Origin: Dehalococcoidia bacterium
Lineage (GTDB): Bacteria > Chloroflexota > Dehalococcoidia > DSTF01 > JALHUB01
Length of the DNA stretch: 59,260 nucleotides
Assembly: GCA_034420175.1 (NCBI GenBank)
Contig: DAOULP010000225.1
Span: forward strand, 1 to 59,260
Reading direction: 5' to 3'
Part shown: piece by piece, positions 10,096 to 43,360 of the stretch
Layout: every line of letters starts with the position of its first letter
Numbering within the stretch: the stretch's first letter is position 1
Made by a program: the position numbers and the translations under genes
The notes under the pieces: model-generated
Told to the model about the DNA's origin: nothing
What the model saw: only the letters and a program-made list of their open reading frames with translations
Databases searched by the model: none

Positions 10096-10953
10096 CTACT
10101 GAGCAGCGGAGGCCGACGCTTGGGGCGGGTAGAGGACCAGCTTGCTGCCGTGTGAGGGGTCGGGGCCTACTTCGGCCATCGCTTGGGCCACTGCCTCCGC
10201 CGGCGTCATGTTCTCGACCAGCAGGTGTCGGAGCAGGTGCTCGGTGGCGGCGTCGGTGTGGTCCGCCGACACGCCGCCGTCCCAGCCGATGACCGTCCCC
10301 GCGCCCTTGTCGACGAAGGCGCTGGCGGCCGTGTCGGACTTGAGCACGTCGCAACCCATCACAATGACGGTGGCGCTGTCGAAGTCGCCCTTCATGCTGG
10401 ATCTGATGAAGCCCCCGCCAATCCCGAAGAGGAAGTCCGGGTCGTCTTCGGAGTAGTGGACGCCGGCCACGTTCGCCGCCATCTGATCCTCGACATGCTT
10501 CCTTCCGTCATATGGCTCCGCGGTGAAGAGGAACGGCTTGTCCGTGGACGTGCGGCCGCCGCCCTCATGGAGTATGCCCGCCGAGTGTACCCTCAGGACG
10601 AGGTAGTCGTAGCCGTGGGTTGGAAGATCTCGGTAGAAGTCTACCGTCACCTCCTCGCCGGGGTAGTAGTCCACCGTGTAGCCGGCCTCCTCCAGCGTGT
10701 CCGTGGCTGATTGGACGAAGTCCGGATTGGGATAGGTCAGGGCCAACTGGTCCACGATCGCCGCGCTGGGAGGGCCAGGGGCTTCACTCGACCGGGAGCC
10801 GAGGAGGATCAGCGGCACAGCGACGGCGGCCACGACGACCGCGAGGAGGGCGGCAAGCATCGCCCTCCAGCGCGGGCCACGTCGAGAGGCCGCCGGAGTG
10901 GGACGGGGCGCCACCCCCTTGGAGCGGCGCCCCCTTCTCTTCTCTCTACTCAC
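10096..10953 (-). CDS. Membrane-anchored exported protein, putative caspase/CHAT-fold (clan CD-like) His-Cys peptidase; start may be 10860
   Basis: N-terminal TM helix, then LVLRVHS and VIVMGC (beta-strand followed by His, and beta-strand followed by Cys). Fold assignment is inference. Confidence 0.6.
   Translation of the reverse strand: MSREKRRGRRSKGVAPRPTPAASRRGPRWRAMLAALLAVVVAAVAVPLILLGSRSSEAPGPPSAAIVDQLALTYPNPDFVQSATDTLEEAGYTVDYYPGEEVTVDFYRDLPTHGYDYLVLRVHSAGILHEGGGRTSTDKPFLFTAEPYDGRKHVEDQMAANVAGVHYSEDDPDFLFGIGGGFIRSSMKGDFDSATVIVMGCDVLKSDTAASAFVDKGAGTVIGWDGGVSADHTDAATEHLLRHLLVENMTPAEAVAQAMAEVGPDPSHGSKLVLYPPQASASAAQ
10905..10933. terminator. Conserved GC-rich hairpin 39 nt downstream of the first VGG-tail gene
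   Basis: GGGGCGCC...GGCGCCCC stem; near-identical to 12656-12682. No U-tract on the minus strand, so terminator function is uncertain. Confidence 0.45.
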
Positions 10954-10971: not shown

Positions 10972-11997
10972 CTACCGAAGCCATCGCCTCCTAGTGTACC
11001 AGGCGCCCGCCGTCATAGCGATCGCCGCAGCGGCCAGCCCGGCGGCCAGCCCAGCGTAGGCGCCGGTCGACCAGCCGGAGCCGTCAGCGGGCGTACCGGA
11101 CTGCGCCGAGACGTCCGCCCCCGGCGCGAGCTCCGCCACGCCTCCGACCTTGGCGGGGAAACCGCACGGGACGCCCGAGGACCCAGCGGGTGGAACCTCG
11201 TGGGCTAGCTTGTCCTGGATGATGACATCGGGGCCGTCTTTCACGGTGTAGAGCGCGACAATGCTGCCGCCTACGTTGTCCCCTGTGGTGTTGATTGTGA
11301 CTGCGCGGGCACCGCCTGGGGACAAGTCGAATGGAGCCGGCGCCACCCAATCCCACGTGTTGAACGAATCCAGCGCCACAAATGAGAGCAGCGACGGATC
11401 CGATCCTATCTTGAGTTCGCCCACCGTCAGGGTATGTACGGGATCATCGTTCCACAGCCACAACTCGTGTCCGTACTCGCCAGGCTTGTTGGGATCAGCC
11501 GCCGGATCGCAGATAGCCCAACCGTGGTCGGGCCCGGCGTCACTGGGGTCCTGGCCTTCATGGGTCCACTCGATCCCATACTCCCGCTTGGTGTTGAAGG
11601 CGGTCAGCGTCCATTCGAAGTAGAAGGTCAGAGATCCGCCGTCGGGGATGATGAAGTTGTCGCACGTGACATCAACGGCGTGCATGCCATTGTCGCCGTT
11701 CGCATGGGGATTCCCGATGCCCGGGAGGCTCTCGTCAGGCTGGTCGCCTCGCACCCCCACACAGTCCGTCAAGGGCGGCACCTCTCCAGTGATGGCCCAG
11801 CCAACCACTTCGATGGAATCCTCTTTCTGCCAGAACTTGATGTGGAAATCGGTGGCCGTGATGCCAGTCGTGTTCTGGTATGTGACTATCTCTCTCTGCG
11901 TATAAGGACTGTCTGCCGCTGCCGGGCCGGCAGCCTGAGAAGCCAGCGCCAGAGTGGCAACCATTGCGGCCAGCGCTGTCAGAACCACCCACCTCAT
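10972..11997 (-). CDS. Secreted/surface protein with C-terminal VGGVAEL-TM-WYTRRR tail
   Basis: GGGAGG RBS; signal peptide MRWVVLTALAAMVATLALASQAA; C-terminal hydrophobic helix followed by RRR. Confidence 0.85.
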   Translation of the reverse strand: MRWVVLTALAAMVATLALASQAAGPAAADSPYTQREIVTYQNTTGITATDFHIKFWQKEDSIEVVGWAITGEVPPLTDCVGVRGDQPDESLPGIGNPHANGDNGMHAVDVTCDNFIIPDGGSLTFYFEWTLTAFNTKREYGIEWTHEGQDPSDAGPDHGWAICDPAADPNKPGEYGHELWLWNDDPVHTLTVGELKIGSDPSLLSFVALDSFNTWDWVAPAPFDLSPGGARAVTINTTGDNVGGSIVALYTVKDGPDVIIQDKLAHEVPPAGSSGVPCGFPAKVGGVAELAPGADVSAQSGTPADGSGWSTGAYAGLAAGLAAAAIAMTAGAWYTRRRWLR

Positions 11998-12386
11998 AGC
12001 TGCACCTCCCTCGTGCAGTACGTGGGACCGACCGCCGGTCCCTGGATAGCCGCCTCCTTCTGTTGCCTGTCCCACCGGGCTCCCGACCTCGCGCTCACGG
12101 CCACCCGGTGAGATCATTCCCTTCCCTCTCTGTTGCCTCTACGCCCTCCCCCTTTGCCGGGCAGGTCAACAACGTGGCGGCCTAAGCCACGTGCTCCAAC
12201 CCGGGGCATGCCTGACGCCCCAACCGCTGTCTGCTCGCGCGGTCGCCGCAAACAGCGAGCAAGTCGGGGTCGGACCGGAAGCCGGCACTCTCATGCCAGC
12301 AATCCCGCAGACACAGCCATTGCCGTAGGACGCCTGCTACTGGGCGAGGCCAACGCGTAGTGGGGTGTGATGCCACCAGCGAGGCC

Positions 12387-12415
12387 TATTTACATCGGCT
12401 GGTGGCGCTTGTCAA
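12387..12415 (-). promoter_or_regulatory. sigma70-like promoter upstream of 10972..11997
   Basis: Minus strand reads TTGACA-N17-TAAATA (plus strand TGTCAA 12410-15, TATTTA 12387-92). Confidence 0.55.
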
Positions 12416-12447
12416 GCCCCTTCGGGATAAAAGTTTTCAGTAAGGAG

Positions 12448-12514
12448 AGGAGCGGCCGGCGTCGCGGCGCTGTGGTGCGCCCCGTGGAGAGTCCTAGCGC
12501 GGAAGTGCGCGGCC
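12448..12514 (+). repeat. 67-bp direct repeat, copy 1
   Basis: AGGAGCGGCYGGCGTCKCGGCGCTGTGGTGCGCCCCGTGGAGAGTCCTAGCGCGGAAGTGCGCGGCC; 2 mismatches to 14149-14215. Confidence 0.95.
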
Positions 12515-12655
12515 TCTAAGGGCCTGGCCCTTACGATGGTGGCTCGTCGCGAGGGGACCAATCCACCCCGTCGGCGGCTGATGGCGCGGAGCGCACCAGC
12601 GACAGCCGAGCGCCGCTGCGGCCATCGATGGCAGCGAGGAAGGCGAGGATGGGGA

Positions 12656-12682
12656 GGGCGCCACCCTCCCGGAGCGGCGCCC
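12656..12682. terminator. Conserved hairpin downstream of the second VGG-tail gene
   Basis: GGGCGCC...GGCGCCC; homologous to 10905-10933 and at a similar distance from the stop codon. Confidence 0.45.
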
Positions 12683-12722
12683 CCCTTCTTCACTTTCCAC
12701 TGACGGAACCTGTCTGCTGCGC

Positions 12723-13727
12723 CTACCGGTGCGATCGCCTCCTGGCGTACCAGCCGCCTGCGCTGAGCGCGAGCAGAACTGTGGCGAGAACGGCTGCCAG
12801 CCCGGCGGAGGTGCCTGTCGACCAGCCGGACCCGTCAGACGCGGACTCCTGCGCCGATGTCTCCGGCCCCGGTGCCAGCTCCGCTATGCCGCCGACCGCC
12901 GCCGCATTCTCCGCGGGCCGTATGCCGTGCGCTGTGGCTCCGGCCGCTGTCATCACAACAGTCCCCTTCGTCCTCGGTGACTGGCAGGTGATGCCGGGAA
13001 AGAAGTTGCTCGTGAGCCCCGCGGCCTCCACAACCACGTGACCCGGCGGGTCATCGAGCGGGTTGGCGGTGTGGCACCAGTTCTCGCCGGTGGCCTGGAA
13101 GAGAAACGGGTCGCGCCCCTCCAGGTGCCAGTCAAGCACCATAACCATATTCGGCGGGTCGACCTGCCTGAATGTCAAGATAGGCTCCACGGGGAGCAGG
13201 ACGTCGAATGTGCCGCCGTCGGCAAACTCATGCCGGATGGTCATGGTCCCCTGCTGCTGCACCGGGTCTGGACCCTCGAGCACCTGAACGGTCAGGTCCC
13301 ACGCCTCGGGGTCTAGACCCCCGTTCTCTGTGACGGTTATGGGGTCTACGCTCTTGAGCTCCAGCCGGACCATCTCGATGTCAATGGTGTCGGGGAAGGC
13401 GGGCCCTGCGTCCTGCAGCCGCTCGACAATGGTGTCCGTTGGAAACAGCCCGGAGAAGGCCCCGAATGAATCGAACGGCACCCCTTCCAGGGCGACTGTG
13501 CCGTCGAACGGGTCGGAGCCGGGGCCGAAGAAGTCGGCAGGTATGGGATCACCCGACAAATCCATGTAGGTCACACTGCTATCCGTCTCCAGGAGGTCAT
13601 GCCCCGCCTGCACCACATCTGGTGAGGCCGTCGCCGTGTTCGCGCCGCGGGCCACGAAGGCCAGGGCTACGACCGCTGCCGTCAAGATCAGCGAGGCCAG
13701 CCCTCTGCAACCCCATCTGCTCTTCAT
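12723..13727 (-). CDS. Secreted/surface protein with C-terminal VGGIAEL-TM-WYARRR tail
   Basis: AAAGGAG RBS before MKSRWG; signal peptide; acidic beta-rich body; tail homologous to that of 10972..11997. Confidence 0.85.
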   Translation of the reverse strand: MKSRWGCRGLASLILTAAVVALAFVARGANTATASPDVVQAGHDLLETDSSVTYMDLSGDPIPADFFGPGSDPFDGTVALEGVPFDSFGAFSGLFPTDTIVERLQDAGPAFPDTIDIEMVRLELKSVDPITVTENGGLDPEAWDLTVQVLEGPDPVQQQGTMTIRHEFADGGTFDVLLPVEPILTFRQVDPPNMVMVLDWHLEGRDPFLFQATGENWCHTANPLDDPPGHVVVEAAGLTSNFFPGITCQSPRTKGTVVMTAAGATAHGIRPAENAAAVGGIAELAPGPETSAQESASDGSGWSTGTSAGLAAVLATVLLALSAGGWYARRRSHR

Positions 13728-22589: not shown

Positions 22590-23750
22590 GTGAGAAGACG
22601 AACCATCGGCCTTAGTCTGCTCATGATCGGCCTCGTCGTAGGTCTGCTGAGCATCGGCAGCTGGGCTGTCTTCAACGACACGGAGACCGCGGGGTCCTAT
22701 ACGGCGACTGCGGGGGGCCTGGATCTGGAGCTGGACGCGACGCAGGTCGTGCCAGCCGAGATCTCGGACCTCAAGCCATCCGACTGGCACTACCTTGGGC
22801 CCTTCGAGCTCCACAACGCGGGGGGCAACGCGGGTGTGCTGGACCTGCACTTTGCCAACATCGTCGACTCCGGCGGCGACCTGACTGACCCGGAGGAGGC
22901 GGCCCAGTACGCTGGCGCCATCGACGACATCAGCAACTGGATAGATGTCGACTGGTGTGTCGACGCTGTTCTGAACGGATCGCGAGACTGCAACGGTCCG
23001 ATAATCGGGAAGCTGGGGGAGCTCGAGAGCCAAGTCATCGACCTCGGCGTTACCCTGCAACCGAGCGACCGCGTCGAGCTCTGGCTGTCGTTCCACCTCG
23101 AGACGGAGGCCGGAAACGAGTACCAGGGTGACCAGAGCACGTTTGACATCGAGTTCACGCTCCACCAAGCGAACCTGGGTGCGCTGGGCCTTCCGGCCGG
23201 CACCGCCTGCGTCCGGCTGGAGAACAAGGACACGACGACCTGGGATCCCATCCTTGGCGATGCTCTGTATGGCTCTGTGTGCTACGGCGTCGACGGCAAT
23301 GGCGACCTCGTGGTACTGCTGGAAGCCAGCGGGCTGGACGACAGCAAGTACTACCAGATCGGCATGACCGGCCCGGACAGTTGCTCGGACACCGATGACC
23401 AACTGGCCAGCGGCACGCAGCAGTACCCCGACTTCGACAGCCACTTCTGGGTGGCTGGCGCGCCGGCAAGTACGTGCACAACCGTCGGCTTCGGGTTCCA
23501 CAACTTCGCCTACGAGCAGCCGGTGGGTGGGATGATCCAGCAGACCTACACCATCAACAACGCTGGCGTCCCCGACCCGGCCGACAGCACGGACGTGGTT
23601 GCGAGCCACCCGGCCCTGCCCAGCGGCGTCTACACTGGCGTGAAGTTCCTTGTCAAGGAAGTTCCGCCTGGATTCCCGCCGCCACCGTGGCCAGCCACGT
23701 ACACATCGGTCTTGATGGAGATGAACACGCTGAGCTTCAACCTCCCGTAG
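22590..23750 (+). CDS. TasA/CalY (camelysin-like) SipW-dependent secreted protein with an extra C-terminal domain
   Basis: SipW-type signal GSWAVFNDTE; LKPSD...HNAG; AGNEYQGDQSTFDIEFTLHQ. Confidence 0.85.
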   Translation: MRRRTIGLSLLMIGLVVGLLSIGSWAVFNDTETAGSYTATAGGLDLELDATQVVPAEISDLKPSDWHYLGPFELHNAGGNAGVLDLHFANIVDSGGDLTDPEEAAQYAGAIDDISNWIDVDWCVDAVLNGSRDCNGPIIGKLGELESQVIDLGVTLQPSDRVELWLSFHLETEAGNEYQGDQSTFDIEFTLHQANLGALGLPAGTACVRLENKDTTTWDPILGDALYGSVCYGVDGNGDLVVLLEASGLDDSKYYQIGMTGPDSCSDTDDQLASGTQQYPDFDSHFWVAGAPASTCTTVGFGFHNFAYEQPVGGMIQQTYTINNAGVPDPADSTDVVASHPALPSGVYTGVKFLVKEVPPGFPPPPWPATYTSVLMEMNTLSFNLP

Positions 23751-23763
23751 GCTGGGAAGCAGC

Positions 23764-23796
23764 GGCAGGTGGGGCGGCAGCGCCGTCCCACCTGCC
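23764..23796 (+). terminator. 15-bp intercistronic hairpin between the tasA-like gene and sipW
   Basis: GGCAGGTGGGGCGGC-AGC-GCCGTCCCACCTGCC. Confidence 0.6.
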
Positions 23797-23805
23797 AGTC
23801 AATGC

Positions 23806-24609
23806 ATGAGGTACTTCAGAACCGGCGCCAAGCTGGCCGCGGCCCTCGCCAGGACGCTTGTCTATGCCGTCCTGAGCCTCTCTGTGCTGGCTGTCCTGGC
23901 CATCGTGGTGCTCCCCCGGATCTCGGGGATTCGATTCGCCGCCGTTCTCAGTGGCAGCATGCAGCCGGAGGTGGCCACGGGAGACCTGATCGTGGCCTGG
24001 CCGGTAGATCCAACGCAGATCGAACTAGGCGACGTGATCCTGTTTCGCTCGCCTTCGGACCCCGGCGCGAAGGTCGCCCACCGTGTCGTGGAAATCGACG
24101 CCGACGGGAGCTCCCTGGCCTTCGTCACCAAGGGCGACGCCAACCAGTCTCGGGACCGTCTGCCGGTGCCCGCAGGGCGCGTCCTCGGCAGGGTGCAGTT
24201 CCACCTACCGCTTCTTGGTCACGTGATCCGCCAGATGAATGAACCCCTGATGTTCCTCCTCGCCTTGGGAGTCCCCGGGGCCTTCATCATTGCCGGTGAG
24301 ATGTGGAACATCGTGAGGGCGCTCAAGGGCGACAGGTCTAGGGAGCCCGGCATCGATCTGACCAGGGGGCACGCCAGTGAGGCGCCGGAGCGTCCGCCGG
24401 TGCCCGCGCGCGCCATGGCGGGCAGGTTCTGGTTCCACGCAGCGCTTCTTCGTCACGTCATCCGGCAGATCACGAGACTCATGGCCTTGCTCATCGTCCT
24501 GGCGGTGCCGGTGACCTTCATCATTGCTGGGGCAGCATGGGGCATCGTCAGGGCGCTCAAGCCAGACAATTCCAGGGAACTCGGCGCAGAGCCAGGGAGC
24601 GACCAGTGA
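23806..24609 (+). CDS. sipW: Signal peptidase I, SipW/S26B (ER-type)
   Basis: LSGSMQP (Ser), GDLIV, VAHRVV (His), FVTKGDAN. Confidence 0.9.
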   Translation: MRYFRTGAKLAAALARTLVYAVLSLSVLAVLAIVVLPRISGIRFAAVLSGSMQPEVATGDLIVAWPVDPTQIELGDVILFRSPSDPGAKVAHRVVEIDADGSSLAFVTKGDANQSRDRLPVPAGRVLGRVQFHLPLLGHVIRQMNEPLMFLLALGVPGAFIIAGEMWNIVRALKGDRSREPGIDLTRGHASEAPERPPVPARAMAGRFWFHAALLRHVIRQITRLMALLIVLAVPVTFIIAGAAWGIVRALKPDNSRELGAEPGSDQ

Positions 24610-25928
24610 ACCGTTCCCTCAGGGTGCGCGTCTCGGTCCCCGGCGGTGTGCTGGTCCTGGCCGCCCTTGGCGTCCTGGTGCTGTCGCGGGTCGGGGGGGC
24701 CTACGGCCTCTTCTCGGACACCGAGAGGGCCTCTGGGTTCCTGGCTGCCTCCGCCGACTTTCCCCCGCTGCCCGCCACTGTGGACATCGACCCCGACACC
24801 CTCAACCCGGAGAGCGAGGGCTACTTCGTCACGGCCTACGTCGAGCTGCCCGAGCCGTGGGACGTGGCGGACATCGATGTCTCCACGGTGAGGCTGGCGG
24901 TCCAGGGCGAAGCCGCCACCGTTTCGGCCGAGAACCATCCGACCGAGCTCGGCGACCACGATGGAGACGGCATCGCCGACGCCATGGTCAAGTTCCACCG
25001 CCAGGCGGCGCTGGGCCTGTTCGAAGGGACGTTCGGGCCAGTCACCACCAGGGTGACGGGCCAGATCGGCAATCGAACCTTCCAGGGCACCTGCACGGTC
25101 AACGTCCTTGACCCGCCGCCCGCGATGCCGTCTCCTTCTGCCACGCCCGCGCTAACAAGTACCGCGACGGCAACGGCCACCCCGGCGCTTTCCTTCTCGC
25201 CCACGGCTACAGCCGCCCCGGCGGAGGCGTCGCCCACGGAGGAGCCCACCGCGACAGCCACGGTGCCCGAGGACGGTGTGACCTCGCCCACGCAACTGAC
25301 GTGCGCCAGGCTCAACCTTTTCGAGCGGCGGATGGAATGGCTGCCGGCGTCCCACGTTGACCGCTACGTCCTCTATCACGATGGCCCCTTCGGCAGCGAT
25401 GCCTTCGACGAGGTTGCACAGGTAGACAGCCCTGCCACCACCTATGACGACGTCTCTCCCAGCTTCTTCCACCACCGCTGGTATGTGGCCAGCATGGTGG
25501 GTACCTGGGAAAGCGGCTCTAGCCACAGCCTTGAGGTACACTGCCGACCGACCGTCTACTTCCCCGCCCCCCGTGGCCTCAACGGCAGTAGCCACGACTG
25601 GCAGCGGACCGTCAGGCTGACCTGGGAACCCGTGGCGGGGGCGGTTCGCTACGGCGTCTTCCGCGCCGCGCAGAGCGGCGGGCCGTACGAAATGGTGGCA
25701 CTTGTTGAGCGTGCAGGCTACGGCGACAACGCCGTCAGCGACGGTGTCACGTACTACTACGTCGTCGTGGCCCTGGACGCCGCCGGAAATGAGTCGGACC
25801 CCAGCGATGAACTCGCTGTGGCATACGTAGCTCCCACACCTTCGCCCACCCCTACTCCCACGGCTGCTGTCACGGCGACACCTTCCTCCACACCTGAGGC
25901 GAGCGCCACGGCCACGGCGCCGCCCTAG
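24606..25928 (+). CDS. SipW-dependent secreted protein with Thr/Pro linkers and fibronectin type III-like domains
   Basis: GTG overlaps the sipW stop; GGAYGLFSDTE signal; VRYGVFRAAQSGGPYE and YYYVVVALDAAGNES FN3 motifs. Confidence 0.8.
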   Translation: MNRSLRVRVSVPGGVLVLAALGVLVLSRVGGAYGLFSDTERASGFLAASADFPPLPATVDIDPDTLNPESEGYFVTAYVELPEPWDVADIDVSTVRLAVQGEAATVSAENHPTELGDHDGDGIADAMVKFHRQAALGLFEGTFGPVTTRVTGQIGNRTFQGTCTVNVLDPPPAMPSPSATPALTSTATATATPALSFSPTATAAPAEASPTEEPTATATVPEDGVTSPTQLTCARLNLFERRMEWLPASHVDRYVLYHDGPFGSDAFDEVAQVDSPATTYDDVSPSFFHHRWYVASMVGTWESGSSHSLEVHCRPTVYFPAPRGLNGSSHDWQRTVRLTWEPVAGAVRYGVFRAAQSGGPYEMVALVERAGYGDNAVSDGVTYYYVVVALDAAGNESDPSDELAVAYVAPTPSPTPTPTAAVTATPSSTPEASATATAPP

Positions 25929-36855: not shown

Positions 36856-37830
36856 CTAGGATTCATCCTCCCCAACTGACTCCTTGGCAGTTGTCAGCAC
36901 ATTCTGCAGTTGCTGATAGTACACAGGCTCCTCGTGACGCAGCGTGTCAACGAATGACATGTAGTCAGCGTGAGTCAAGGGATCAATCTGGAGACCCCCT
37001 CCATCCTTGAACAGCAAGACAACGACGCCCGAACTTCTGTCGTGAAGCCAGCCCAACTGATACTCCTTGACCTCGCGCCAGGCGGCATACTTGTCGTACT
37101 TTGCCAGACCGCTGAAATCCGGACGACCTGCTTTGTCCATCAGGTAGGCAGATTTGGTGGCCCCCGGTTTCCGATTCTTGTTCAGCGAAGCAATCATGTC
37201 GCTGGCAGACTCTATGCCGACACCGTGACCGTAGTACTCCCCGTCCCCGAGATCGATCACGTTCTCTCCTTGCCACCACGGGGTCTTCGGGTTCACTTCC
37301 GGGTTCTTGAAGTACCTCCGGTCTCCAGGTAGATAGTCCGGTTCCTTTTGCCAGGTCAACCCAAGGTCTTGGTCAGACTTCCAGCCCTTCAGCACAATTC
37401 CCTGAAATAGCTTGTTGAATATCGCTGGGTGGAGTGATTCCAGAAGCGCCTTATAGTAGACGATCATCATCGCGGTGGCGCACTCGAATGCATACTGCGG
37501 GCCATTCGTGAAGATGTCAGCAATGGCGGCAGAAGGCTCAGTGCCCTGTCTTAGTTGGAACCCGCCAGCGCTGGTGCGATCCCAGAAGGCGGAGTTGCAC
37601 TTCGAGTATTTGAAGGTGGCGAAAGTGGCGCCACTCCCCTTGAGAGCCTTTGCGCTGGCAATGATATTCGTCCTCACCTTCAGTTCGAACTTCAGTTGGT
37701 CTAGCGAACCGTAATCGTGTGCCGTGCCACTTGCGGCCATGCTGTTGATGATATCCCTTCCGGCGCTGCCTGACGGCCACTGCCCGTTGATGCTACCGGG
37801 AGAGACGGTGGTCCCCGAGACTCTGATCAT
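36856..37830 (-). CDS. tgl: Protein-glutamine gamma-glutamyltransferase (Bacillus Tgl-type transglutaminase) with a C-terminal extension
   Basis: Collinear with B. subtilis Tgl as recalled: MIRVSG, LKFELKVR, YAFECATA (Cys117), YFKNPE, QGENVI (Glu189), YGHG (His202), GATKSAYL. Confidence 0.92.
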   Translation of the reverse strand: MIRVSGTTVSPGSINGQWPSGSAGRDIINSMAASGTAHDYGSLDQLKFELKVRTNIIASAKALKGSGATFATFKYSKCNSAFWDRTSAGGFQLRQGTEPSAAIADIFTNGPQYAFECATAMMIVYYKALLESLHPAIFNKLFQGIVLKGWKSDQDLGLTWQKEPDYLPGDRRYFKNPEVNPKTPWWQGENVIDLGDGEYYGHGVGIESASDMIASLNKNRKPGATKSAYLMDKAGRPDFSGLAKYDKYAAWREVKEYQLGWLHDRSSGVVVLLFKDGGGLQIDPLTHADYMSFVDTLRHEEPVYYQQLQNVLTTAKESVGEDES

Positions 37831-38840
37831 CGTGAACCTCCCAGGTCCGCTGCTTTCAGTTGCTCCGCCAATGGAGTGCGAATCCAGGCGTCCCAAGAGT
37901 CGACCTTCTGGTGACGCGTCACGGCTGAGTGCGCGGCAAGACCGACTTTGAGGGGGTCGTCCAGGTTCCTGAATTCCTCTAGAACTCGGCCTTCGTCCTC
38001 CGTCAGGGGGCCCAGTATCTCCCCGGAGTCAATCGATACGAACCTCCCTAGGTACTTGGCCTCCAACACCACAGCATAGGGTGTCGGTTCGCTCGTCATC
38101 TGGAAGCTCTCGCCCTGGAAATACAGAAAAGGTCCGTTCTCTTCAAGCCACTTGTGGAAAGCTCGATACTGCTGTTCGCCCTCGTTGTCTCCGCGTACAT
38201 CTATCCCTGGCACAAAAGCAAGCAGGCGACGCGCTAGTTGACGCTCCCCTGCGCGTGGAGATCGAAGGCGGTCAGCAATCATCAACAGGCTGTGTGGCTG
38301 ACGGGCTTCGAAGAATGCCCACACCAGATCTTCGACGTCCACGTTCACGTTTGTCGCGGCGCGAGCGAAGATCAGCTCCACCACCTTCGGCAACACGTCT
38401 CTGTCTCCGAACGTGACCGTCAAGAGCGAAGCCGTCGCGTCCAGCACGTGGCCATACTGAGGATCCGATGCGAGCTGCGGGACGCCGGTTTCCAGCATCC
38501 ACCTCAACACGGAGTGAACCATTTGCACGTGGTCGGCTATCGATAGGCGGTAGGAAACAGCAGGCGAATCCCCCTCACCCGACAGAATGTCCCTGACAAG
38601 CTCCATTGCGATTCGGTTGCGCTCGTTCAGTCTGCCAGGGAGGGCCAGATTCTCCACATCATCCCGAAGGACAAACAGAGAGGGGAACTGCAAGTCTTCA
38701 TGATTGAGTGCGTCAGTCGCATCTTCTGCGTCACGAGCGGCGGAGTCGCGAAAGAGCTTCTTCAGCGCTTCAACGCCATCATCCTGCCTGACTTGATCCA
38801 GACGGGCTGTTCTGTGCTCGTGCTTGTCTGCTGTCGCCAC
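37827..38840 (-). CDS. Helical hypothetical protein translationally coupled to tgl
   Basis: GAGGGAGG RBS and GTG 38840; ATGA overlap with tgl; motifs DLVWAFFE, FLYFQGESFQ, EAKYL. Confidence 0.8.
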   Translation of the reverse strand: MATADKHEHRTARLDQVRQDDGVEALKKLFRDSAARDAEDATDALNHEDLQFPSLFVLRDDVENLALPGRLNERNRIAMELVRDILSGEGDSPAVSYRLSIADHVQMVHSVLRWMLETGVPQLASDPQYGHVLDATASLLTVTFGDRDVLPKVVELIFARAATNVNVDVEDLVWAFFEARQPHSLLMIADRLRSPRAGERQLARRLLAFVPGIDVRGDNEGEQQYRAFHKWLEENGPFLYFQGESFQMTSEPTPYAVVLEAKYLGRFVSIDSGEILGPLTEDEGRVLEEFRNLDDPLKVGLAAHSAVTRHQKVDSWDAWIRTPLAEQLKAADLGGSR

Positions 38841-40927: not shown

Positions 40928-41683
40928 CTACCGGAAGAGGTCTCTGTCGGGGTCGCGGACCAGGTCGCGGCCGCGGCCGCAGCCGGTCTCGAAGCGGTAG
41001 CCGCGGATGAGCGTCGCGGGGATGCGCTCCAGCTTGCCCGCCACCAGTTCGGCGGCGGCGGCGAGCTCGTCGGCGACGGCGACCTGAGTGACACGCAGCT
41101 CGTAGCCGTAGGGGTCCTGCTGGCCGGAGTAGTTCTTGAGGGCCACGAGGCCGGCCACGCCGATCGCCACCTCGTCGCTGCCCTCGCGCCAGGGCCTGCC
41201 GAACGTGTCAGAGATGATGACTGCCACCCGCGCGTTGGCCCGCTCCTCGACAGCGCGGCGCAGCGCCTCGGCCGAGCTGTCGGGGTCCTCGGGCAGGAGC
41301 GTGAGAAGGCCCGGGCCGCCGGCGTTCGAGGCGTCGACGCCGGCGTTGGCGCAGATGAAGCCGTGGTGCGTCTCGGCGATGATGATGCCGCGGTCCATGC
41401 GCACGATCCGGCGGCTCTCGCGCAGCACCACCTCTACGTGCCGGGCGTTCTTGCCGGTCTCCTCCGCCACTTGCCGCGCAAAGCTCGACGGCTCGACGGT
41501 TGGCAGGCTCACGACCCGGCCCTCCGCCTTCGACACCACCTTCTGGGTCACGACCAGAATGTCGCCGTCGACGGGGGGCGTGTCCTGGCGATGGGCGGCG
41601 TCCAGGATGAGGGCCGCCAGGTCGTCGCCCGAATGTACTTCGGGGATACCGGCAACGCCGATGATGCGGACTTCGGGGGTCAA
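40928..41683 (-). CDS. cofE: Coenzyme F420-0:L-glutamate ligase
   Basis: GIPEV..GDDL, VVTQKVVSKAEG, CANAGVD.SN, ISDTFGRPWR.G, ADELAAAA. Confidence 0.95.
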   Translation of the reverse strand: MTPEVRIIGVAGIPEVHSGDDLAALILDAAHRQDTPPVDGDILVVTQKVVSKAEGRVVSLPTVEPSSFARQVAEETGKNARHVEVVLRESRRIVRMDRGIIIAETHHGFICANAGVDASNAGGPGLLTLLPEDPDSSAEALRRAVEERANARVAVIISDTFGRPWREGSDEVAIGVAGLVALKNYSGQQDPYGYELRVTQVAVADELAAAAELVAGKLERIPATLIRGYRFETGCGRGRDLVRDPDRDLFR

Positions 41684-42354
41684 GAGGGGCTCCGGGTCGG
41701 CCGACCGCTCTCCAGTCCGACGATGCGGACACCGGTCTCGGCCTTGTGGAGGCGGTTCAGGTTGAGGAGGAGAACGGTCAGCACCTCGACATAGCGGGCG
41801 TTGCTCAGTCTCCCGCCATCGACGGCGCGGAGGCCGGGGATCTTCTCAGCCAGGGCCATGGCCGTCGCCTTGGCCTCCGGGTCATCACCGCAGACCAGGA
41901 CGTCGCCCTCGAGCGTCGTGCCCTCCTCCTGGAGCTTGTGCGCGCTGAGGGTGTGGAAGGCGGCAGCCAGTCGAGAGCGGGGCAGGAGCCGCTGCGCTTC
42001 CTCGGCGGCGGAGCCCTCCTCCACCGGAACGGGGCGGGCCCGCCCCTTCTCGAAGGCCAGCGGCACAACCGTGTCGACCACGATCTTCCCTTCGAGAGCG
42101 TCGGCCAGCTCGGCGAGCGTGGGCCGCTGCCCGGCGTAGGGCACCGTGATGAAGACCACGTCGGCGTCGGCCACGGCGTCTCGATTGAGGGCGCCGCGGA
42201 CACGGGCCGAAGGCGAGCGCTCTCGGACCCAGGCGGCGGCGTCCTCGGCGCGGTCCGGCTTGCGGGAGCCGATGACGACCTCCTCGCCGGCCACGGCCAG
42301 GCGAAAGGCCAGCCCCAGTCCCTCGGGTCCGGTGCCCCCAATGAAGGCGATCAT
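41680..42354 (-). CDS. npdG: NADPH-dependent F420 reductase
   Basis: IGGTGPEG.GLA, VIGSR, VDTVVPL, DVLVCGDD, DGGRLSNA. Confidence 0.95.
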   Translation of the reverse strand: MIAFIGGTGPEGLGLAFRLAVAGEEVVIGSRKPDRAEDAAAWVRERSPSARVRGALNRDAVADADVVFITVPYAGQRPTLAELADALEGKIVVDTVVPLAFEKGRARPVPVEEGSAAEEAQRLLPRSRLAAAFHTLSAHKLQEEGTTLEGDVLVCGDDPEAKATAMALAEKIPGLRAVDGGRLSNARYVEVLTVLLLNLNRLHKAETGVRIVGLESGRPTRSPS

Positions 42355-42415
42355 GGGCGAATAGAATCCGTCATGCTCAGAAGTGGGCTAAGCCTAGCAA
42401 GCGCCCTGGGCGGCG

Positions 42416-43360
42416 TCAAGGAGACACCGCGCCGGCGACGCGCAGGACCTCGCGGGCCAGCGACTCGCGCTCGGCGGGGCCGGTCATGACGGTGTTGGTG
42501 ACGACAGGCCGCATCCCCAGCGCCGCCACGTCGTCCGCCTGCGCCGTGTCCTGTTCGTCCAGCACGAAGGCCTGGGCGAAAGGGGCGTAGAGTCGGGCCA
42601 CGCCGCGCGCGCTCACCTCGTGGCCGAGCCCGGAGAGCATCCCGTCGGCAGGCGGCTGGAAGACCCGTCCCGCGACGACGGGACTGACTGCCACGACCGG
42701 CGCCGAGGCGGACCGTACGGCTTCGCGGACGCCGAGCAGCGACAAGATGGGCTCGATACTGCCGATGGGGTTGCTGGGCGCTACCACGATGACCTCCGCC
42801 CCGGCCAGGGCCTCCAGCACGCCCGGCGCCGGCCGAGCCTGCTCGACACCCTGGAATCGCACCGCTCGCACGCGGTCGCGGGCGCCCCGTTTCACAAGAT
42901 ACTCCTGAAAGCTGAGAGTACCGGCGTCGGTCTCGACTATCGTGGGCACGCGATCGTCGGTCATGGGGAGCAGGCGGACCTGTACACCCAGCCGCCGGGC
43001 GATGTCGGCCGCCGCCTGGCTCAGGGTCCCGCCCCGGCGCAGGAGGGCCGTGCGGTGGACGTGGGTCGCCAGGTCGCGGTCCCCGAGGCCAAACCAAGTC
43101 TCGCCGCCGAGCCGGGCCAGCGCCTCCAGACAGTGGAACGTGTCGCCCTGGTAGCCCCAGCCGCGGCTCTCGTCGACGAGGCCGGCCAGGGCGTAGGTGA
43201 CGATGTCCAGATCGGGGCACACGTAGAGGCCGAAGAACTCCTCGTCGTCGCCCGTGTTGACGATGGCCGTCACCTGCTCCGGCCTGACGACCTGCACCAG
43301 GCCTCGCAGGAAGCGCGAGCCGCCGACGCCGCCGGAGAGGACGGTTATCAAGCCCCGCAT
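42416..43360 (-). CDS. cofD: 2-phospho-L-lactate transferase
   Basis: LSGGVGGSRF, VNTGDD, CPDLD, LGDRDLATH, LPMTDD, PSNP..SI.PIL. Confidence 0.96.
   Translation of the reverse strand: MRGLITVLSGGVGGSRFLRGLVQVVRPEQVTAIVNTGDDEEFFGLYVCPDLDIVTYALAGLVDESRGWGYQGDTFHCLEALARLGGETWFGLGDRDLATHVHRTALLRRGGTLSQAAADIARRLGVQVRLLPMTDDRVPTIVETDAGTLSFQEYLVKRGARDRVRAVRFQGVEQARPAPGVLEALAGAEVIVVAPSNPIGSIEPILSLLGVREAVRSASAPVVAVSPVVAGRVFQPPADGMLSGLGHEVSARGVARLYAPFAQAFVLDEQDTAQADDVAALGMRPVVTNTVMTGPAERESLAREVLRVAGAVSP

Follow-up and report, generated by a model that had tools for sequence, protein, structure and literature searches.

The DNA analysed here (the window) is a stretch of 59,260 nucleotides (nt) from a Dehalococcoidia bacterium of the Chloroflexota (NCBI GenBank assembly GCA_034420175.1, contig DAOULP010000225.1, positions 1 to 59,260 of the forward strand), with a G+C content (GC) of 65-70%. 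Three consecutive genes on its minus strand encode two secreted proteins, P2 and P1, and, directly downstream of P1, a small membrane protein whose predicted fold resembles the CHAT domain. P1 and P2 carry the same type of C-terminal tail, composed of a V-G-G signature, a linker, a transmembrane (TM) helix and a cluster of arginines. The tail appears to be a sorting-type signal, and the CHAT-like protein is its candidate cognate enzyme. The two tail-bearing genes, with lengths in amino acids (aa) and the extent of the maximal open reading frame (ORF), and the parts of their tails are as follows.

12723..13727, minus strand: P2, secreted protein of 334 aa (MKSRW...), deposited gene call; maximal ORF to 13901
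12723..12896, minus strand: tail of P2, tail-profile score 66.3 bits
12870-12896, minus strand: VGGIAELAP motif of the P2 tail
After this motif, minus strand: linker of the P2 tail, 23 aa, acidic and serine-rich, including GSGWSTG
12747-12806, minus strand: TM helix of the P2 tail, followed by ARRRSHR and the stop codon
12738-12743, minus strand: AGGAGG, coding for the first two arginines of RRR in the P2 tail
10972..11997, minus strand: P1, secreted protein of 341 aa (MRWVV...), deposited gene call; maximal ORF to 12117
10972..11148, minus strand: tail of P1, tail-profile score 72.1 bits
11122-11148, minus strand: VGGVAELAP motif of the P1 tail, with the linker next
10996-11058, minus strand: TM helix of the P1 tail, followed by TRRRWLR and the stop codon
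10987..10992, minus strand: AGGAGG, coding for the first two arginines of RRR in the P1 tail

A sequence-only reading of this DNA had proposed that two unrelated secreted proteins share a candidate sorting signal, within a range (10972-12905) that covers the whole of P1 but only the tail of P2. Both tails lie on the minus strand exactly as that reading quoted them, and the signal peptides that it assigned to both proteins are borne out by N-termini that resemble Sec signal peptides. The bodies, judged by eye to be dissimilar, are indeed unrelated by BLASTP: the alignment of P1 with P2 is confined to the last ~77 residues (53% identity, E 3e-17), and all other segments have E>=0.38. The tail common to the two proteins is 57-58 aa long, and these are the only two copies in the window. 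The bodies match no family in Pfam or NCBIfam and have no relatives among the ORFs of the loci fetched for comparison. At the level of sequence, the resemblance between the two tails is far beyond chance, because a profile of 28 tails gives 66-72 bits on both and finds 2036 database matches.

The tail family and the named sorting signals

A first, word-indexed search with the two tails yielded 27 metagenomic proteins with a clear common pattern. The 28-tail profile was searched exhaustively against 1.84 billion protein representatives and matched 2036 of them (each standing for a protein cluster) at E<=1e-3 and 576 at E<=1e-10. In nearly all of the best 150 listed, whose lengths range from 60 to 1782 aa, the match lies at or within a few residues of the C-terminal end. 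A hidden Markov model (HMM) of the tail, the check that the sequence-only reading had suggested, therefore recovers a large C-terminal family, and the alternative that the tail occurs in these two genes only is refuted by the number of matches and the diversity of their bodies. The bodies of 84 full-length members include the Pfam domains TSP_3, Beta_helix/NosD, FG-GAP, Peptidase_S8 (subtilase), cohesin, VWA, PD40 and NlpC/P60, among others. A signal-peptide-like N-terminus is present in 51 of the 69 members that start with Met, and none of the 84 full-length members has an additional strongly hydrophobic segment.

The consensus of the tail is P-VGGIAELPD, an acidic and serine-rich spacer, the TM segment YIALAGLAAAALVALTAGAWY and ARRRWLR; an example from the family is PVGGIAELPDVSDSS. 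In 248 non-identical tails, the residues of the motif are conserved to different degrees (V 228, G 247, G 247, I 183, A 222, E 216, L 191, P 211, D 145), the stretch at the membrane exit, A-L-T-A-G-(A/G)-W-Y-A-R-R-R-W-L, hardly varies, and the protein ends three residues past RRR in 187. The spacer between the signature and the TM helix is variable, ~8-25 residues, and the distance from the V of the motif to the W has modes at 36, 39, 43 and 50 residues. The tails of P1 and P2 belong to the long-spacer mode, and the element GSGW(S/P)xG, which reads GSGWSTG in the window, is a feature of this subgroup rather than a signature of the family. There is no conserved Cys in the tail.

Contigs of genomes were scanned with a single exact pattern, AG[GA]WYARRR, which gave 47 loci, 46 of them in Chloroflexota metagenome-assembled genomes (MAGs) labelled Dehalococcoidia, Chloroflexia or Chloroflexota. 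Several loci may occur in one genome, with nine in one MAG and five on a complete 2.66-Mb chromosome, and tandem tail genes are frequent (four in locus L005; three each in L021, L027 and L043). Some of the loci also contain short ORFs that end in ...LTAGGWYARRRWL and have no VGG signature (L029:1935-2195 and L045:1590-1850; also L014, L030, L033, L034 and L039). The ORFs of L029 and L045, which belong to different MAGs, are almost the same upstream of the tail too. Frameshifts in tail genes, decay to pseudogenes or a separate family of small proteins may account for these short ORFs.

The tail has the same architecture as the LPXTG, PEP-CTERM, PGF-CTERM, GlyGly-CTERM and MYXO-CTERM signals, in which a motif, a TM helix and a basic cluster follow one another at the very end of the protein. 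It shares with these tripartite signals the unrelated bodies with signal peptides, the many copies per genome and the restriction to certain lineages. As with those signals, where a dedicated enzyme gene sometimes adjoins the substrate gene, a gene for a candidate enzyme adjoins some tail genes. The differences concern the motif and the enzyme. VGGIAELPD matches none of the known motifs, and it stands 8-25 residues from the TM helix whereas the motif abuts the helix in the known signals. The candidate enzyme spans the membrane once and exposes a clan-CD domain on the outside; it lacks the sortase fold and differs from the polytopic exosortases, the rhomboids and the CPBP proteases.

Scans with NCBIfam 20.0 and Pfam are consistent with a tail outside the named families. 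No CTERM model reaches its cutoff on full-length P1 or P2. The named CTERM model that matches most isolated tails is GVDTG_CTERM (NF058571), with 19 of 28 at E<=1 and scores of 14.3-21.3 bits against a cutoff of 29; on the window's own tails it gives <=10 bits. Its alignments span profile positions ~14-44, the TM helix and basic cluster, in which it is similar to the tail, and leave the signature unaligned. TIGR01167 (LPXTG_anchor) scores 16.9-18.6 bits on some isolated tails (cutoff 15.9), over the TM and RRR part only, and does not match full-length P1 or P2; Pfam Gram_pos_anchor (PF00746) gives 12.9 against a threshold of 20, and the family consensus has no LPXTG-like pentapeptide directly before the TM helix. 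The NCBIfam models for PEP-CTERM, PGF-CTERM, VPXXXP and PEF have no match on P1, P2 or the low-GC tails described below, and those for IPTL and PFE match single tails only (E 0.13-0.68). The GlyGly-CTERM model (TIGR03501) has no match either, and the Gly-Gly of the tail, 34-50 residues ahead of the W that closes the TM helix, does not abut that helix. MYXO-CTERM matched one tail (E 0.0055), and the invariant Cys of its signature is absent from the tail family. The low-GC tails have sub-threshold NCBIfam matches only, again in the TM helix and the basic cluster. None of the named CTERM models covers the VGG signature. Literature searches returned nothing relevant on the motif strings of the tail or on CTERM signals in Dehalococcoidia, and Chloroflexi, Dehalococcoidia, CHAT and caspase all go unmentioned in Haft's myxosortase preprint.

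The sequence-only reading could not assign the tail to a named family, and this still stands, since full-length proteins have no CTERM match and the matches of isolated tails are limited to the TM and basic part. Its recognition of a sorting-signal architecture likewise gains from the presence of the tail on many unrelated signal-peptide proteins. The features of sequence and distribution expected of a tripartite sorting domain are found: a motif, TM helix and basic cluster in extreme C-terminal position, unrelated secreted bodies, multiple copies per genome and restricted taxa. Judged from these, the tail is genuine as a sorting-type signal, abundant and still without a name, with processing and anchoring as its presumed fate.

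The CHAT-like gene and its pairing with the tail

The gene downstream of P1 and the codons of its putative catalytic residues are located as follows.

10096..10953, minus strand: CHAT-like gene, candidate cognate enzyme, 285 aa from GTG 10953
10096-10860, minus strand: deposited call of the same gene, 254 aa
10585..10587, minus strand: codon of His92 (LRVHS), putative catalytic His, invariant in 117 homologues and kept in low-GC homologues
10351..10353, minus strand: codon of Cys170 (MGCD), putative catalytic Cys, invariant in 117 homologues and kept in low-GC homologues

The true start is probably GTG 10953, 18 nt past the P1 stop codon, and the deposited call would then miss ~31 N-terminal residues. 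This start is favoured because it yields the basic N-terminus found in the homologues, which are 280-290 aa long. No terminator-like site lies between P1 and the CHAT-like gene on the minus strand. The protein consists of a basic cytoplasmic N-terminus, one TM helix and an extracytoplasmic domain of ~220 aa. It is anchored N-in/C-out, with the catalytic domain on the same side of the membrane as the signature of the tail.

The CHAT-like protein has more than 1055 homologues, and the 120 best of these that were listed have no precomputed Pfam domain. In the Pfam scan its matches are CHAT (PF12770; E 0.038, 13.9 bits against a cutoff of 24) and Peptidase_C25 (PF01364; E 0.1, 12.3 bits against a cutoff of 23). 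An alignment of 117 members has R90, H92 (in LRVHS), G169, C170 (in MGCD), W193, T202 and D203 invariant, and the pattern WxxxVxxxxTD...EA after the Cys resembles the C-terminal region of CHAT. The AlphaFold2 model used here is the alignment-based one, with a predicted local distance difference test score (pLDDT) of 89.8 and a predicted TM-score (pTM) of 0.84; a single-sequence run gave a pLDDT of 44.6. In the model the N-terminal TM helix is followed by an alpha/beta domain in which His92 comes after strand 86-90 and Cys170 after strand 164-168.

The top Foldseek match in the PDB (E 1.8e-6) is to the extracytoplasmic CHAT domain of DdvA, a single-pass transmembrane anti-sigma factor (PMC11506125). 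The next matches are SAVED-CHAT, Csx29/TPR-CHAT, separases and the gingipain RgpB, followed by generic flavodoxin-like folds. The top clan-CD matches have a probability of 1.00, and the E values of the CHAT matches run from 1.8e-6 to 9e-4. DdvA, SAVED-CHAT and Csx29/TPR-CHAT are thus the best structural matches. The protein of the window is smaller (~285 aa compared with 470-900) and lacks their sensor, TPR and anti-sigma domains. It has no defence context and is paired almost everywhere with a tail-bearing secreted protein. A defence-system role was rejected, as PADLOC gave no defence-system match for it.

Model and Foldseek together show the caspase-hemoglobinase alpha/beta fold of clan CD, and the conserved His and then Cys stand at strand ends as is characteristic of the dyad of that clan. 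On the basis of the modelled fold, the dyad and the sub-threshold HMM matches, the CHAT-like protein is assigned as a clan-CD cysteine-peptidase homologue with an intact His/Cys dyad and predicted activity.

The pairing of this gene with the tail depends on the side from which it is viewed. Among the 47 genome loci selected by the tail, a CHAT-like homologue occurs within 10 kb in two (L015 and L017), directly downstream of tail genes in both, so that ~5% of the tail genes in such loci adjoin a CHAT-like gene. From the other side, three homologues chosen solely for their long contigs (L050, L052 and L054) each have a tail-bearing gene directly upstream; the L054 tail carries a frameshift, and in L052 another tail gene lies downstream. 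Scanning metagenomes with the alignment of the CHAT-like protein gave 80 loci. An instance was assessable if enough upstream sequence was available (15 with <400 nt were left out), and a tail ORF was counted if it ended between -150 and +300 nt upstream on the same strand. Of the non-redundant CHAT-like instances, 63 of the 72 assessable (~88%) have a tail ORF directly upstream on the same strand; in the other nine no tail was detected, and some of these show tail fragments, a transposase or frameshifts. When the instances are clustered at 90% identity, 57 of 64 assessable clusters (89%) have an upstream tail gene, and at 70% identity 27 of 31.

The upstream bodies could be compared in 43 assessable cases and fall into 28 groups unrelated by BLASTP, implying that the conserved neighbour of the CHAT-like gene is the tail and not the body of the protein. 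On L070, L072 and L085, two tail/CHAT-like gene pairs stand side by side on one contig, which suggests that the pair can duplicate as a unit.

The pairing is not limited to high-GC genomes. At loci of 46-50% GC (L132 and L134) the tail reads VGGI(V/L)EFPQ...HNYGA...WYVRRRR, and at loci of 37-44% GC (L115, L117, L135, L136 and L137, the last three being independent long contigs) it reads (V/F)GG(I/V/F)xxPVDKFxLLAPYIGLxST...YVKRVKRRKEKQ. In all seven of these dialect loci a CHAT-like homologue lies downstream of the tail. The homologues of L115 and L117, which came from the metagenome scan, are 46-48% identical to the window's CHAT-like protein and keep LRVHS and MGC. Some low-GC homologues carry NCBI labels of Bathyarchaeota or Nitrososphaeria MAGs; a family-B DNA polymerase adjoins the CHAT-like gene in L125, and the polymerase in L135 is a bacterial DnaE. 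On the strength of MAG labels and polymerase neighbours, the low-GC branch seems to span both domains. The lineage-specific signal proposed by the sequence-only reading therefore holds for the pattern as scanned in genomes, with 46 of 47 loci in Chloroflexota, and is too narrow for the family, which has a wider, low-GC dialect in MAGs that are partly labelled archaeal. The tail gene and the CHAT-like gene are found together in genomes of 37-68% GC, in the same orientation and independently of the body, and it is very likely that the two are functionally linked.

The tail has a further property at the level of codons. In 69 of 110 distinct high-GC tails (loci L003-L134), the first two arginines of RRR are encoded by AGG-AGG, as in P1 and P2, and the third by CGN; AGG is found at the first Arg codon in 84 of the 110 and at the second in 94. 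As background, AGG makes up 7.7% of the Arg codons in 34 genes of the window, and AGG-AGG is outside the ten commonest codon pairs for the 83 RR dipeptides in window genes. The distance from the AGGAGG to the stop codon is ~12 nt, with or without a gene beyond it. A role as the Shine-Dalgarno sequence of the CHAT-like gene is unlikely, given a spacing of 33 nt and its presence where no gene follows. A translational pause or rare-codon effect as the TM helix is completed is possible.

Other genes around the tails

The sequence-only reading had also suggested that a sortase, exosortase or rhomboid might co-occur with the tail. A conserved partner candidate does stand beside tail genes, and it is none of these three. 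Genes for a sortase, exosortase, rhomboid or CPBP protein are absent from the 59-kb window, and none of these families (PF04203 in the case of sortase) was found in seven Pfam-annotated contexts. Of the 35 Pfam families matched by 45 polytopic membrane proteins near tail genes, the 25 commonest were listed, the other 10 having a single member each, and no enzyme of these kinds is among those 25. All-against-all clustering of the ORFs in the 47 tail loci gave no family that recurs in more than six loci.

A polytopic membrane protein of 557 aa is encoded convergently to the tail gene in three loci (L010:10169-11842, L016:3401-5074 and L049:11650-13323), with 75-86% identity, and three matches to 7TM-7TMR_HD plus HD are probably these proteins. 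Paralogues of DUF4389 cluster upstream in L010 and L049. DUF4389 and 7TM-HD were considered as conserved partners of tail genes and rejected, as their recurrence most likely reflects synteny among closely related MAGs and not a functional link.

The other genes of the window are mostly metabolic, encoding acyl-CoA dehydrogenases, CoA transferases, major facilitator superfamily transporters, F420 biosynthesis, and thiamine and ATP-binding cassette transport. An F420 cluster at 40928-43360 on the minus strand encodes F420-0:gamma-glutamyl ligase, F420-dependent NADP oxidoreductase and CofD. At 22590-25928 on the plus strand, a protein with an N-terminal camelysin/Peptidase_M73 match (E 2.9e-10) precedes a signal peptidase of the Peptidase_S26 family and a 463-aa ORF of no known family, an arrangement that looks like a TasA/SipW-type secreted-fibre cassette. 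With a GC of 0.59-0.63 compared with ~0.67, the segment 36000-39200 was perhaps acquired as an island. It encodes, at 36856-37896 on the minus strand, a TGL protein-glutamine gamma-glutamyltransferase (PF20085, E 2.7e-100), beside a 351-aa ORF without a family.

Proposed processing of the tail and its alternatives

Two well-characterized systems in clan CD provide a framework for the function of the CHAT-like protein. GPI8/PIG-K (MEROPS C13), a subunit of the eukaryotic glycosylphosphatidylinositol (GPI) transamidase, is a membrane-anchored cysteine peptidase on the non-cytoplasmic face, as is predicted for the candidate enzyme. In the GPI-attachment signal, as in the tail, small residues at the site (V-G-G in the tail) are followed by ~8-12 polar spacer residues and by a hydrophobic segment at the C-terminus, and this signal likewise serves many unrelated substrates. 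The CHAT-like protein has no sequence or HMM relation to C13, its Foldseek matches being nearer to CHAT, separase and gingipain, and the tail has a basic cytoplasmic cluster that GPI signals lack. PorU is a gingipain-like (C25) sortase of clan CD and acts as C-terminal signal peptidase and transpeptidase for many surface proteins. The likeness of the CHAT-like protein to it consists of RgpB among the Foldseek matches and of the weak Peptidase_C25 match, which at E 0.1 is far below threshold. PorU is associated with the outer membrane of diderm Bacteroidota, and the signal of the type IX secretion system is a beta-sandwich domain of ~80 aa without a TM helix, whereas the tail has one.

It is fairly likely that the CHAT-like protein processes the tail, so that the two would represent a new sorting signal and its dedicated clan-CD enzyme. 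In the proposed mechanism, the body would be exported by Sec, and the tail would hold the protein in the membrane with the VGG signature just outside. A few nanometres from the bilayer surface, the CHAT-like protein would recognise the signature VGGIAE..P..D and cleave the tail there. Cleavage would either free the protein or, by transpeptidation, hand it to an acceptor in the envelope. Tail proteins encoded elsewhere would be processed in trans, a many-to-one arrangement with one substrate always kept in cis. With an adjacency of ~5%, most substrates would have to be processed in trans if the model is right. Catalysis, the cleavage site, the acceptor and the in-trans processing of non-adjacent tails are all inferred.

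Several results weigh against this mechanism. The CHAT-like protein does not reach the HMM threshold of any of the families CHAT (PF12770), C25 (PF01364), C13 and C14. A profile search with its family gave no meaningful match to PDB sequences, and the Foldseek TM-scores are modest (0.45-0.49). The P1 residue required by clan-CD enzymes is usually Asp, Arg, Lys or Asn; the most invariant residues of the tail, V-G-G, are unlike these, and no more than 145 of 248 tails (58%) have Asp at position 8 of the motif. The acidic residue that aligns at this position in all dialects (LPD or PVD) would suit a clan-CD P1. Most tail genes are not adjacent to a CHAT-like gene, and a few homologues, such as those of L125, L076 and L083, lack an upstream tail. 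Many of the metagenome loci come from one sample series (Ga0315...) and are not fully independent, despite which the pairing ratio is kept after clustering at 70% identity. Cleavage of the tail is itself a deduction.

This last point also favours the first alternative, a rather unlikely one, in which the tail is a conserved, unprocessed TM anchor, with a stalk and a stop-transfer segment, that has spread by domain shuffling. The CHAT-like protein would then act otherwise at the surface, maturing or degrading envelope proteins, or would signal like the CHAT-bearing anti-sigma factor DdvA. Conservation of the segment AGAWYARRRW exceeds that of the corresponding part of classical sorting signals, as would suit a role in structure or insertion, and the family-wide AGG-AGG bias points to a constraint on translation or insertion, not to cleavage. 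That the top Foldseek match is a transmembrane regulator with an external CHAT domain (DdvA, PMC11506125) agrees with this alternative as well. A plain anchor, however, gives no obvious role to the near-invariant extracytoplasmic VGGIAE..P motif, and it is at odds with a CHAT-like gene following a tail gene of any body type in ~88% of assessable cases, as a pairing independent of body type implies that the link is to the tail. As for the other roles of the CHAT-like protein, signalling in the manner of DdvA is disfavoured by the lack of a sigma-factor gene beside the CHAT-like gene in the window or the annotated loci, and PADLOC gave no defence match.

It is improbable that the tail is processed by a conventional enzyme encoded elsewhere (a sortase, an exosortase/archaeosortase, a rhombosortase or a CPBP 'myxosortase') with the CHAT-like protein as an accessory. 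All five known classes of sorting enzyme can be encoded far from their substrates, and the TM and basic part of isolated tails does have weak matches to LPXTG_anchor, GVDTG_CTERM and GPS-CTERM. The named models nevertheless leave the signature motif uncovered, and no conventional enzyme is seen in the 59-kb window, the seven annotated contexts or the 25 commonest of 35 Pfam families matched by polytopic membrane proteins near tail genes. The strong, orientation-specific adjacency of the CHAT-like gene would also be left unexplained.

That the tails of the window are class-E-like sortase signals, with GWSTG before the TM helix as an LPXTG-type pentapeptide, was rejected as highly implausible: TIGR01167 does give the isolated P2 tail 17.6 bits (cutoff 15.9), with an alignment that starts at STG and runs across the TM helix to RRR, but GWSTG is limited to the long-spacer subgroup and absent from the consensus, full-length P1 and P2 lack a TIGR01167 match, the Gram_pos_anchor match falls short of its threshold (12.9 against 20), and no sortase gene is seen nearby.

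Within the preferred reading, that the CHAT-like protein processes the tail, a bolder version makes it a transpeptidase or anchoring enzyme, a sixth class of prokaryotic sorting enzyme and an analogue of the GPI transamidase. After cleavage, the tail-bearing protein would be transferred to a lipid or an envelope acceptor. The system would be shared by Dehalococcoidia and low-GC sediment lineages, including MAGs labelled Bathyarchaeota or Nitrososphaeria, presumably through horizontal transfer. Transpeptidation is plausible in principle because GPI8 and PorU, the two best-known non-sortase catalysts of anchor exchange, both belong to clan CD; as a whole this version is considered unlikely.

Sorting signals and their enzymes shape prokaryotic surfaces, and sortase, exosortase/archaeosortase, rhombosortase and myxosortase each opened a field, with sortase also the source of a protein-engineering tool. 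The CHAT-like family is a candidate processing enzyme from a class of proteins for which no link to the C-terminal TM sorting signals of prokaryotes had been made before, and an orphan motif now has a testable enzyme-substrate pair in the form of a 285-aa predicted peptidase and a 50-aa tag. Should the CHAT-like protein turn out to be a transpeptidase, it would provide a ligase of clan CD that recognises a new sequence, and clan-CD enzymes would have been recruited for the exchange of C-terminal membrane anchors in eukaryotes as well as prokaryotes. Thousands of predicted surface proteins carry the tail in Dehalococcoidia and in related uncultured lineages of sediment and soil, about whose envelopes very little has been learned, and the tail profile provides a simple annotation marker for the surface proteome of these MAGs.

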